A stretch of 25,903 bases of DNA. Source: a virus. Both the position numbers and the translations under genes were made by a program. The stretch is taken from the UHGV virus genome UHGV-0320751; one strand, written 5' to 3'. Below are positions 15,865-17,359 of the stretch, one piece after another (the stretch's first letter is position 1; every line of letters starts with the position of its first letter). The notes under the pieces are model-generated. The model had not been told where the DNA came from, did no database searches, and was given only the letters and a program-made list of their open reading frames with translations.

Positions 15865-17359
15865 TCTTTCACACATTATTGCCGCAGCATTCAATGAACC
15901 GCTGCTTCTGGAGCCCGCCTATGCGCGGGTTTTCTTTTGCGCGCTCGGGCGCGAGATGGGGGCAGCAAGTCTTTCGGTACCACAACAGCAGGTACAGTTT
16001 GATGCTCCCGGAATGCTGGCTGAAACGGACGAGTACATGGCCGGAGGTAAACGACCGGCCCGTGTTTACCGGGTGGTGAACGGTATTGCTGTACTGCCGG
16101 TGACCGGCACGCTGGTGCACCGGCTGGGTGGTATGCGGCCATTTTCCGGAATGACAGGCTATGACGGCATTGTCGCCTGTCTTCAGCAGGCAATGGCGGA
16201 TAGCCAGGTGCGGGGCGTACTGCTGGACATTGACAGTCCGGGCGGGCAGGCCGCCGGCGCGTTTGACTGCGCTGACATGATTTACCGCCTCCGTCAGCAG
16301 AAGCCGGTCTGGGCACTGTGCAATGACACGGCCTGTTCTGCAGCCATGCTGCTGGCGTCGGCCTGCTCCCGACGGCTGGTTACCCAGACATCCCGTATCG
16401 GCTCCATTGGCGTGATGATGAGCCATGTCAGCTATGCCGGTCATCTGGCGCAGGCCGGTGTGGATATCACGCTGATTTACTCAGGGGCGCACAAGGTGGA
16501 TGGCAATCAGTTTGAAGCGTTGCCGGCAGAGGTTCGCCAGGACATGCAGCAGCGGATTGATGCGGCGCGCCGGATGTTTGCCGAAAAAGTGGCGATGTAT
16601 ACCGGTCTGTCTGTTGATGCCGTCACGGGAACAGAGGCTGCCGTTTTTGAAGGTCAGTCCGGCATTGAGGCCGGGCTGGCGGATGAATTAATCAATGCGT
16701 CGGATGCCATCAGTGTGATGGCCACGGCGCTGAACAGTAATGTCAGAGGAGGCACTATGCCGCAATTAACTGCAACGGAAGCCGCCGCGCAGGAGAACCA
16801 GCGAGTGATGGGGATCCTGACATGCCAGGAAGCGAAAGGACGTGAACAGCTTGCCACGATGCTGGCAGGACAACAGGGCATGAGCGTTGAACAGGCCCGG
16901 GCGATTCTGGCCGCGGCGGCACCGCAGCAGCCGGTGGCATCCACGCAGAGTGAAGCCGATCGCATTATGGTGTGTGAAGAAGCGAACGGTCGTGAACAAC
17001 TGGCGGCAACGCTGGCGGCGATGCCGGAGATGACGGTGGAAAAAGCCCGCCCGATCCTGGCTGCTTCACCGCAGGCGGATGCCGGACCATCACTCCGTGA
17101 TCAGATCATGGCACTGGATGAGGCAAAAGGGGCTGAGGCGCAGGCTGAACAGCTGGCTGCCTGCCCGGGAATGACAGTGGAGAGCGCCCGGGCTGTGCTG
17201 GCTGCGGGATCAGGTAAGGCAGAACCGGTCTCTGCATCCACAACCGCCATGTTTGAACATTTCATGGCGAACCATTCACCGGCAGCGGTACAGGGTGGCG
17301 TGGCACAGACGTCAGCAGACGGTGATGCGGACGTGAAAATGCTCATGGCCATGCCATGA
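15854..17359 (+). CDS. C: head maturation protease C (S49/ClpP-like) with a C-terminal scaffold region
   Basis: GTG start overlapping the portal stop. NEPLLLEPAYARVFFCAL and the GVLLDIDSPGG...SAAMLLASACSRRLV peptidase core match lambda C. The 501 aa are longer than the recalled 439 aa of lambda C because of C-terminal repeats. Confidence 0.85.
   Translation: MRRNLSHIIAAAFNEPLLLEPAYARVFFCALGREMGAASLSVPQQQVQFDAPGMLAETDEYMAGGKRPARVYRVVNGIAVLPVTGTLVHRLGGMRPFSGMTGYDGIVACLQQAMADSQVRGVLLDIDSPGGQAAGAFDCADMIYRLRQQKPVWALCNDTACSAAMLLASACSRRLVTQTSRIGSIGVMMSHVSYAGHLAQAGVDITLIYSGAHKVDGNQFEALPAEVRQDMQQRIDAARRMFAEKVAMYTGLSVDAVTGTEAAVFEGQSGIEAGLADELINASDAISVMATALNSNVRGGTMPQLTATEAAAQENQRVMGILTCQEAKGREQLATMLAGQQGMSVEQARAILAAAAPQQPVASTQSEADRIMVCEEANGREQLAATLAAMPEMTVEKARPILAASPQADAGPSLRDQIMALDEAKGAEAQAEQLAACPGMTVESARAVLAAGSGKAEPVSASTTAMFEHFMANHSPAAVQGGVAQTSADGDADVKMLMAMP
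16757..17359 (+). CDS. Nu3: Nu3-like scaffold protein, nested in-frame in the 3' part of C
   Basis: In-frame ATG at 16757 preceded by a strong GGAGG Shine-Dalgarno (16749-16753), analogous to the lambda C/Nu3 nested arrangement. The exact start is not verifiable from sequence. Confidence 0.5.
   Translation: MPQLTATEAAAQENQRVMGILTCQEAKGREQLATMLAGQQGMSVEQARAILAAAAPQQPVASTQSEADRIMVCEEANGREQLAATLAAMPEMTVEKARPILAASPQADAGPSLRDQIMALDEAKGAEAQAEQLAACPGMTVESARAVLAAGSGKAEPVSASTTAMFEHFMANHSPAAVQGGVAQTSADGDADVKMLMAMP

Follow-up and report, generated by a model that had tools for sequence, protein, structure and literature searches.

Why does the head maturation protease gene of a lambda-like phage carry, in its scaffold part, three diverged copies of a motif that lambda carries once, and what could these copies do? 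The gene in question lies in the UHGV virus genome UHGV-0320751, a stretch of 25,903 nucleotides that is referred to here, at its full length, as the window, and is the homolog of gene C of lambda and gene 5 of phage 21. The 501-amino acid (aa) product, gp5, combines a protease domain with a scaffold region, and the latter is apparently also produced separately, from a putative nested in-frame gene (gene 6, the nu3 homolog, with the product gp6). On balance, the three copies are the outcome of an old in-frame triplication of a small, predicted three-helix module that probably acts in scaffold docking, which would make the phage 21 scaffold trivalent. The triplication as such is nothing new: it is already recorded in the decades-old GenBank entry of phage 21, so that the preliminary description of the window, which reported it, is a correct rediscovery.

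The three copies, with their scores against a hidden Markov model (HMM) of the motif, and the tail that follows them are located in the window as follows:

16793..16924, + strand: repeat 1, aa 314-357, ENQRVMGILTCQEAKGREQLATMLAGQQGMSVEQARAILAAAAP (motif HMM, 75.8 bits)
16952..17071, + strand: repeat 2, aa 367-406, EADRIMVCEEANGREQLAATLAAMPEMTVEKARPILAASP (motif HMM, 83.3 bits)
17093..17215, + strand: repeat 3, aa 414-454, LRDQIMALDEAKGAEAQAEQLAACPGMTVESARAVLAAGSG (motif HMM, 75.8 bits)
17216..17356, + strand: C-terminal tail, aa 455-501 (alignment of 14 gene 6 homologs)

These starts agree with the positions in the preliminary description (about 16796, 16951 and 17095), and the claim of three diverged tandem copies is borne out by the protein sequences. 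The BLOSUM62 local alignment scores between pairs of repeats are 101, 85 and 93, compared with a mean of 25–26 (standard deviation of about 5) for shuffled sequences, i.e. z = 11.5–15.5, with none of the 2000 shuffles scoring as high. Such shuffle-tested pairwise alignments were used in place of blastp self-comparison which, for both gp5 and lambda gpC, returned only the trivial full-length self-matches and is uninformative with respect to repeats. At the DNA level, the three copies indeed differ, as had been noted, with an identity of just 52–64%, and Tandem Repeats Finder reports no repeat in the 16500-17400 segment; the triplication is visible at the protein level only, because the DNA copies are too diverged. 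The copies are joined by short linkers that are rich in Pro, Gln, Ala and Ser.

The phage 21 record M81255.1 contains three repeat_region features, the ‘Tri1 box’, the ‘Tri box’ and the ‘Tri3 box’, each with the qualifier ‘function unknown; putative’. By coordinate mapping and translation, the Tri1 box is the core of repeat 1 (window 16824-16927, aa 325-358), the second, Tri box is the core of repeat 2 (16964-17074, aa 371-407), and the Tri3 box is the core of repeat 3 (17105-17218, aa 418-455).

The single module of lambda

The lambda gpC protein (439 aa; NC_001416 4418-5737) is 58% identical overall to the 501-aa protein. All three repeats match one and the same site in gpC, at aa ~357-400 (E = 3e-15, 2e-12 and 6e-10 for repeats 1, 2 and 3, respectively), with the match of repeat 1 spanning aa 355-404; no second module site in gpC is detected by blastp or by the HMM scan. 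The preliminary description had stated that lambda C/Nu3 carries the motif once, and this holds. Repeat 1, which includes a long first helix, is the copy closest to the single lambda module. The further proposal that the additional copies account for the length of 501 aa is likewise upheld by length arithmetic from the alignments: the two additional modules and the linkers that go with them contribute ~99 aa, which is partly offset by a pre-module linker that is ~35 aa longer in lambda, for a net difference of +62 aa.

Otherwise, the two loci are built alike, with the same order of portal, C/Nu3, decoration and gpE-type capsid genes, an S49 protease domain, a shared C-terminal region that includes the module, and an AGGAGG-ATG at the homologous internal site. 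The differences lie in the number of modules (one in lambda compared with three in phage 21), the longer, low-complexity pre-module linker of lambda and the overall length (439 compared with 501 aa).

The C-terminal tail carries two weakly conserved elements among the 14 gene 6 homologs, F-x-x-F-M...SP-x-A-V and D...L-[LM]-x-x-P, and, judged by eye, seems to correspond to lambda ...LDRLMQGAPAPLAAG...DAVNDLLNTPV; alignment tools gave no confirmation of this correspondence. A vestigial second copy in lambda was considered as well, given that MAFFT aligns the lambda tail (DRLMQGAPAP...) with the beginning of repeat 2. A second copy is not detected by the HMM scan and, by eye, the phage 21 tail (FEHFMANHSPAAV...) is the better match for this segment, so this candidate was rejected, albeit without strong proof.

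Fold, distribution and constraint

The consensus of the module, derived from 98 diverse sequences, is ER.RI.GIL.C.EAKGRE.LA..LA...GMTVE.AK.ILAAAP, with the near-invariant positions I, E-A-x-G-R, A, L-A, A and L. For the isolated module of repeat 1, AlphaFold (run with the alignment of 98, i.e. the module and 97 relatives) yields a mean predicted local distance difference test (pLDDT) value of 93.7 and a predicted template modelling score (pTM) of 0.76, with helices at positions 2-17, 25-32 and 39-48. Each copy is thus predicted to form an autonomous three-helix domain of ~40–45 aa. The model of the full-length gp6, built with 14 close homologs, is of low confidence (pLDDT 61, pTM 0.23) and served solely to derive secondary structure and to note that packing between modules is missing: it contains three helical units of similar appearance, with linkers of low confidence between them, and there is no fixed arrangement between the modules in this monomer model. 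The tail is mostly of low confidence in the same model, one short helix excepted. The module is neutral to acidic (net charges of 0, −3 and −3 for the three copies), and gp6 as a whole has a net charge of −11.

In BFVD, the sole good matches to the module are the same regions of other phage S49 prohead proteases (template modelling score of 0.88–0.89), and no related chain is found in the PDB. Within aa 300-501, Pfam-A gives no hit above threshold for gp5, nor for any of the 98 module sequences scanned singly. This region is covered by PHROG families only, and the PHROG scaffold and capsid-assembly families each match the gene 6 product in three stretches.

In a search of 1.84 billion representative proteins with a profile built from the three repeats, 441 matches at E ≤ 0.001 were obtained. 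One copy is present in 137 of the 143 new representatives that were listed, two copies in four and three in two. Among isolated phages, the HMM scan finds three copies in phage 21 and Gifsy-1, and one copy in lambda, mEp237, Vibrio HY01, Rhodobacter RcWhiteOak, Pseudomonas SS2019XI and Chi; a PF03864 capsid protein is encoded in every isolated phage checked, including FelixO1. As far as these sequences go, a single copy, directly behind the protease domain, is the usual state of S49 prohead proteases that are paired with gpE-type capsid proteins, and three copies mark the phage 21/Gifsy-1 lineage. Independent duplications occurred in other lineages: representative P0250 has two copies and P0026 has four, the last three of which are very alike, and fragments such as P0215 and P0218 show similarly near-identical copies.

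Two database entries deserve separate mention. In the Sinorhizobium phage phi2LM21, the S49 gene (302 aa) ends just past the protease domain, and a separate downstream open reading frame (ORF) of 184 aa, p34, shows a weak match to the module (E = 1.6e-4), which would be a split rather than nested arrangement of protease and scaffold. The representative P0286 (258 aa), with its systematic replacement of Ala by Val and of Pro/Thr by Leu/Ile/Met, is probably a database artefact, the pattern being that expected from C-to-T converted (e.g. bisulfite-treated) DNA.

The triplication is old, as the preliminary description had surmised from the divergence of the copies at the DNA level: each copy has its own ortholog in the Salmonella/Gifsy-1 homologs. 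In these homologs, which are 45–62% identical overall, each repeat aligns with the repeat in the same position and, because the repeats are orthologous position by position, the triplication predates the divergence of the E. coli and Salmonella versions of the head module. The prohead protease STM2605 of the Salmonella prophage Gifsy-1 (498 aa), a lambda gpC homolog, has three modules as well, which correspond in order and by orthology to the phage 21 copies; the aa identities are 77%, 78% and 59% for the modules and 32% for the tail, and the synonymous sites have reached saturation. Between phage 21 and Gifsy-1, the proportions of nonsynonymous (pN) and synonymous (pS) differences are 0.14 and 0.75 for repeat 1, 0.18 and 0.73 for repeat 2, and 0.27 and 0.65 for repeat 3, compared with 0.21 and 0.70 for the protease domain and 0.48 and 0.70 for the C-terminal tail. 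By this measure, all three copies are subject to purifying selection, with repeats 1 and 2 constrained at least as strongly as the enzyme, and constraint is weakest in the tail. An invariant core (E-A-x-G, L-A, M-T/S-V-E-x-A-R/K, L-A-A) is retained in each copy across the E. coli and Salmonella orthologs.

This pattern of conservation bears directly on the possibility that the Tri boxes act at the nucleic-acid level, which could be gleaned from their annotation in M81255.1 as a DNA repeat_region, or that the modules are helix-hairpin-helix DNA binders, in line with weak Pfam matches (E = 0.097 for repeat 3; the best value, E = 0.0021, in one of the 98 module sequences). The low DNA identity among the copies, the lack of a tandem repeat in the DNA and the conservation of the protein sequence (pN being much lower than pS) speak against a role of the DNA itself. 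As for the helix-hairpin-helix family (PF00633), the score of 13.0 bits falls short of the Pfam cut-off of 24, T or S takes the place of the second glycine in the motif, and the modules are acidic. Of the explanations considered here, this one is the least likely and can be given hardly any weight.

Proposed role in procapsid assembly, and copy-number variants

In the reading that we favor, the module would be the docking element of the scaffold, binding the inner surface of the major capsid protein (gp7), possibly along with self-association, and would thereby bring both gp6 (the scaffold) and gp5 (the protease) into the procapsid as it grows. With three modules on flexible linkers, the scaffold of phage 21 and Gifsy-1 would be trivalent and that of lambda monovalent, with the extra modules taking the place of the long unstructured lambda linker. 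Once the procapsid is assembled, degradation of the scaffold by the S49 domain is to be expected, as is the case in lambda. The triplication itself arose by in-frame tandem duplication in the phage 21/Gifsy-1 lineage, which has retained all three copies under purifying selection.

The assignment of docking to the module draws on its being the best-conserved part of the scaffold region, on the contacts of lambda Nu3 and on the helical docking elements of other scaffolds. A yeast two-hybrid map of lambda includes the Nu3-E, Nu3-Nu3 and Nu3-C interactions (PMC3224144), and the coat-binding parts of the P22, phi29, SPP1 and 80alpha scaffolds are helical or helix-turn-helix elements (PMC11565965, PMC11922011). 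The docking role would also be in keeping with the PF03864 gpE-type capsid protein that accompanies the module in every module-bearing phage checked. The best-documented coat-docking module is the helix-turn-helix at the C-terminus of the P22 scaffold (PMC11565965), also a small helical scaffold element, to which the role proposed here would be analogous. The likeness is one of analogy only: the P22 element is basic, two-helix and C-terminal, whereas the phage 21 module is three-helix, internal, repeated and neutral to acidic, and no relation between the two was found by sequence or fold search. Tandem three-helix-bundle modules (the staphylococcal protein A domains, albumin-binding GA and UBA/CUE) are also among the closest systems. 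No discussion of the function of the module was found in the papers available to the literature search. The broader proposition, that this widespread domain is the capsid-docking element of S49 protease-scaffolds in general, trivalent in phage 21/Gifsy-1 as opposed to monovalent in lambda, is put forward tentatively, at somewhat less than even odds.

The lambda interactions cut both ways, because the reported Nu3-Nu3 and C-Nu3 contacts (PMC3224144) would also fit modules that mediate self-association, between scaffold subunits or between scaffold and protease, with the capsid bound elsewhere, for example, by the C-terminal tail. The module lies within the region common to the protease and the scaffold, and several well-studied scaffolds bind the coat at their extreme C-terminus, the place occupied here by the tail. 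The tail is, however, the least conserved part of the protein, with a pN of 0.48 and only 32% aa identity to Gifsy-1, and the gp6 model (pTM 0.23) shows no packing between modules, although, being a prediction for a monomer, it has little bearing on intermolecular contacts. We regard self-association in place of capsid binding as unlikely, if the most serious of the alternatives.

A third potential partner is the portal (gp4, the homolog of lambda B), in which case the modules would incorporate portal and protease at the initiating vertex. All the examined module loci have a portal gene directly upstream, of the lambda family where the family is stated, and a table in PMC3224144 lists Nu3 as required for the incorporation of B, along with a C-B interaction; the Nu3-B interaction itself was not recovered in that two-hybrid study. 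The conservation of the module in the bulk scaffold, on the other hand, suits a bulk partner better. There are 12 portal subunits per procapsid compared with the generally far higher copy number of the scaffold, which counts against the portal as well, and portal binding is accordingly judged improbable.

Natural variation in the number of modules offers another angle. Among the close E. coli/Shigella homologs (>82% identical), which make up the variant set, protein length tracks repeat content:

451 or 452 aa: two copies, either a repeat 1/repeat 2 hybrid with repeat 3, or repeat 1 with repeat 3
472 aa: repeats 1 and 3, with only the C-terminal half of repeat 2 between them
482 aa: repeats 1 and 3, with only the N-terminal half of repeat 2 between them
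501 aa: three copies
551 aa: four copies

The variant junctions lie in microhomologies of 5–8 nt (GAAGCGAA, CACCGCAG and CTGGC); the one 551-aa locus examined has N bases at the junction, and a second, independent 551-aa allele exists. The portal, decoration and capsid proteins encoded next to the 451-, 482- and 551-aa genes are 97.5–100% identical to those of the window, so that copy number varies independently of the shell proteins.

The intact repeat 1-repeat 2 segment is present in 1812 of the 5426 complete E. coli genomes. In the same genomes, junction probes of 40–46 nt, which are unable to seed on one side alone and cover the 482-, 451- and 452-aa types, detect these alleles in 56, 0 and 1 genomes, respectively. 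Thus, the alleles with 2 or 2.5 copies are rare and the three-copy form predominates overwhelmingly. The impression that the 2.5-copy allele is the commonest, which arises from the best 120 full-length matches, is false, since singleton clusters of 482 aa are over-represented among these matches. Each of the 19 records of isolated phages that match at least 80% of the gene aligns in one piece, at 95–100% identity, which is consistent with three copies. The preliminary description had suggested that repeat number might tune the scaffold; this idea finds no support, given that the variants with 2, 2.5 and 4 copies adjoin near-identical shell genes and that three copies prevail.

Several individual alleles are worth recording. 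The 452-aa allele, in which repeat 2 is deleted, comes from E. coli O157:H7 strain 7636 (CP038421.1), in a decayed prophage where the capsid gene is cut to 88 aa and abuts the tail tube gene. In three E. coli proteins, P0172 (721 aa) and P0176/P0177 (577 aa), the sequence runs on after repeat 3 (‘...AVLAAGSG’) into unrelated tail-fibre-like or Gly/His-rich sequence, and these appear to be chimeric ORFs that arose by deletion in decaying prophages, or else by misassembly. The single E. coli protein P0093 (657 aa) contains a tandem duplication of ~156 aa that begins at the end of the protease domain and takes in the nested start as well as repeats 1-2, yielding five full modules and two potential internal starts, which could be an assembly artefact. 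The homolog search with the 200-aa scaffold as the query returned mostly fragments.

Another possibility is that repeats 2 and 3 are a near-neutral spacer expansion, in which overall length or disorder matters and sequence does not. This would agree with the origin of the variants by in-frame deletion or duplication at 5–8 nt microhomologies next to unchanged shell genes, with the long low-complexity linker that lambda has in place of the extra repeats, and with the description of lambda Nu3 as intrinsically disordered in the title of a paper cited in PMC11922011. A mere spacer would, however, hardly retain an invariant core in each copy across the E. coli and Salmonella orthologs, with the pN of repeats 1 and 2 no higher than that of the protease domain under saturation at synonymous sites. 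Moreover, the deletion alleles are rare (57 compared with 1812 genomes), and one of these belongs to a prophage that has decayed and whose capsid gene is truncated. The spacer explanation is therefore quite improbable.

Several observations weigh against the docking module with a trivalent scaffold. The docking role is argued by analogy and from the conservation of the module, which is the highest within the region that the protease and the scaffold have in common. If the prophages with variant alleles are viable, the exact valency is not critical. FelixO1 encodes an S49 protease and a gpE-type capsid protein, and the HMM scan detects no module in this phage, so the module is not obligatory for assembling this family of capsids. 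Finally, the basic coat-binding helix-turn-helix of P22 is not a close model, because the module is neutral or acidic.

The putative nested scaffold gene and its genomic setting

The host gene of the repeats and the nested gene within it have the following coordinates:

15854..17359, + strand: gene 5 homolog (lambda C homolog), 501-aa S49 prohead protease with scaffold region (ORF list)
16747..16752, + strand: AGGAGG, putative Shine-Dalgarno sequence of the nested scaffold gene, within Gly-Gly codons of gene 5 (sequence)
16757..17359, + strand: nested in-frame gene 6 (Nu3 homolog), putative 200-aa scaffolding protein that includes the three modules and the C-terminal tail (phage 21 annotation)

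The AGGAGG, as read from the sequence, is located 4 nt ahead of the in-frame ATG at 16757; the repeats lie downstream of this internal start and hence, as the preliminary description had it, in the Nu3-like part of the protein. Gene 6 and its ribosome binding site are annotated in both M81255.1 and OL657228.1, in each case as putative. The same AGGAGG-N4-ATG is found in lambda at the homologous site (Met310 of gpC; NC_001416 ~5330-5344). In RefSeq, lambda nu3 (201 aa) starts 210 nt further upstream, at 5132, inside the protease domain; at this position, phage 21 has Ile. The Gly-Gly codons that bear the Shine-Dalgarno sequence are retained in lambda, phage 21, Gifsy-1 and mEp237. Because the AGGAGG-ATG and the Gly-Gly codons are conserved and the upstream start is replaced by Ile in phage 21, the comparison suggests that the functional start of lambda Nu3 may be the downstream one, which would give a protein of 130 aa; the description of Nu3 as the C-terminal third of C agrees with this. 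OL657228.1 also annotates two ‘transcription factor CII’ sites (ttgynnnnnnttgy) on the minus strand within gene 6 (window 16762-16775 and 16996-17009), one of them within repeat 2, which look like mere pattern matches.

The gene 5 homolog has a GTG start and overlaps the end of the portal gene. The S49 (SppA-like) peptidase domain comprises residues 1-295; Pfam Peptidase_S49 (PF01343) matches aa 146-293 with E = 3.7e-35 (score, 121.6 bits; cut-off, 24.9), and the protein also matches PHROG 53, ‘head maturation protease’ (E = 1.7e-228), and the SppA structures 3rst and 4kwb (E ~4e-16). Upstream is a lambda-type portal ORF (14242-15864), and downstream are the 115-aa decoration gene shp (HDPD family) and the 342-aa gpE-type capsid gene (PF03864). 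In its S49 domain, its slot between the portal and the decoration and capsid genes, and its post-protease module, the gene is of the lambda C/Nu3 type.

Over its entire length (1506/1506 nt), gene 5 is identical to M81255.1 4572-6077 (‘Bacteriophage 21 head gene operon’) and to OL657228.1 4406-5911 (the complete phage 21 genome). The window is in prophage order, with the left end of phage 21 aligning from position 11449. The match to phage 21 is confined to 11449-25903, and positions 1-11448 match the E. coli temperate phages PhiR63_2 and PhiR57_1 (from ECOR13) at 99.7–99.8%. Because phage 21 is matched only from 11449 on and the upstream part matches other phages, the window is a mosaic relative of phage 21 that shares the head and tail module.

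The importance of these observations is limited by the fact that the triplication has been in the public phage 21 annotation for decades. For the capsid-assembly field, the value is modest, in that the repeat unit is predicted to be autonomous and has neither a Pfam model nor a solved structure. The analysis defines a 55-aa construct, encoded by window 16772-16936, for binding and structural studies of the scaffold, together with a natural copy-number series with which to address the role of valency. Should the docking reading be true, the rare alleles with 2, 2.5 and 4 copies would amount to a ready-made valency series for the assembly of T=7 lambda-type procapsids. As to the phages themselves, no part of the lambda-family scaffold is better conserved than the module, and its presence in three copies is a feature under selection in the phage 21/Gifsy-1 lineage.

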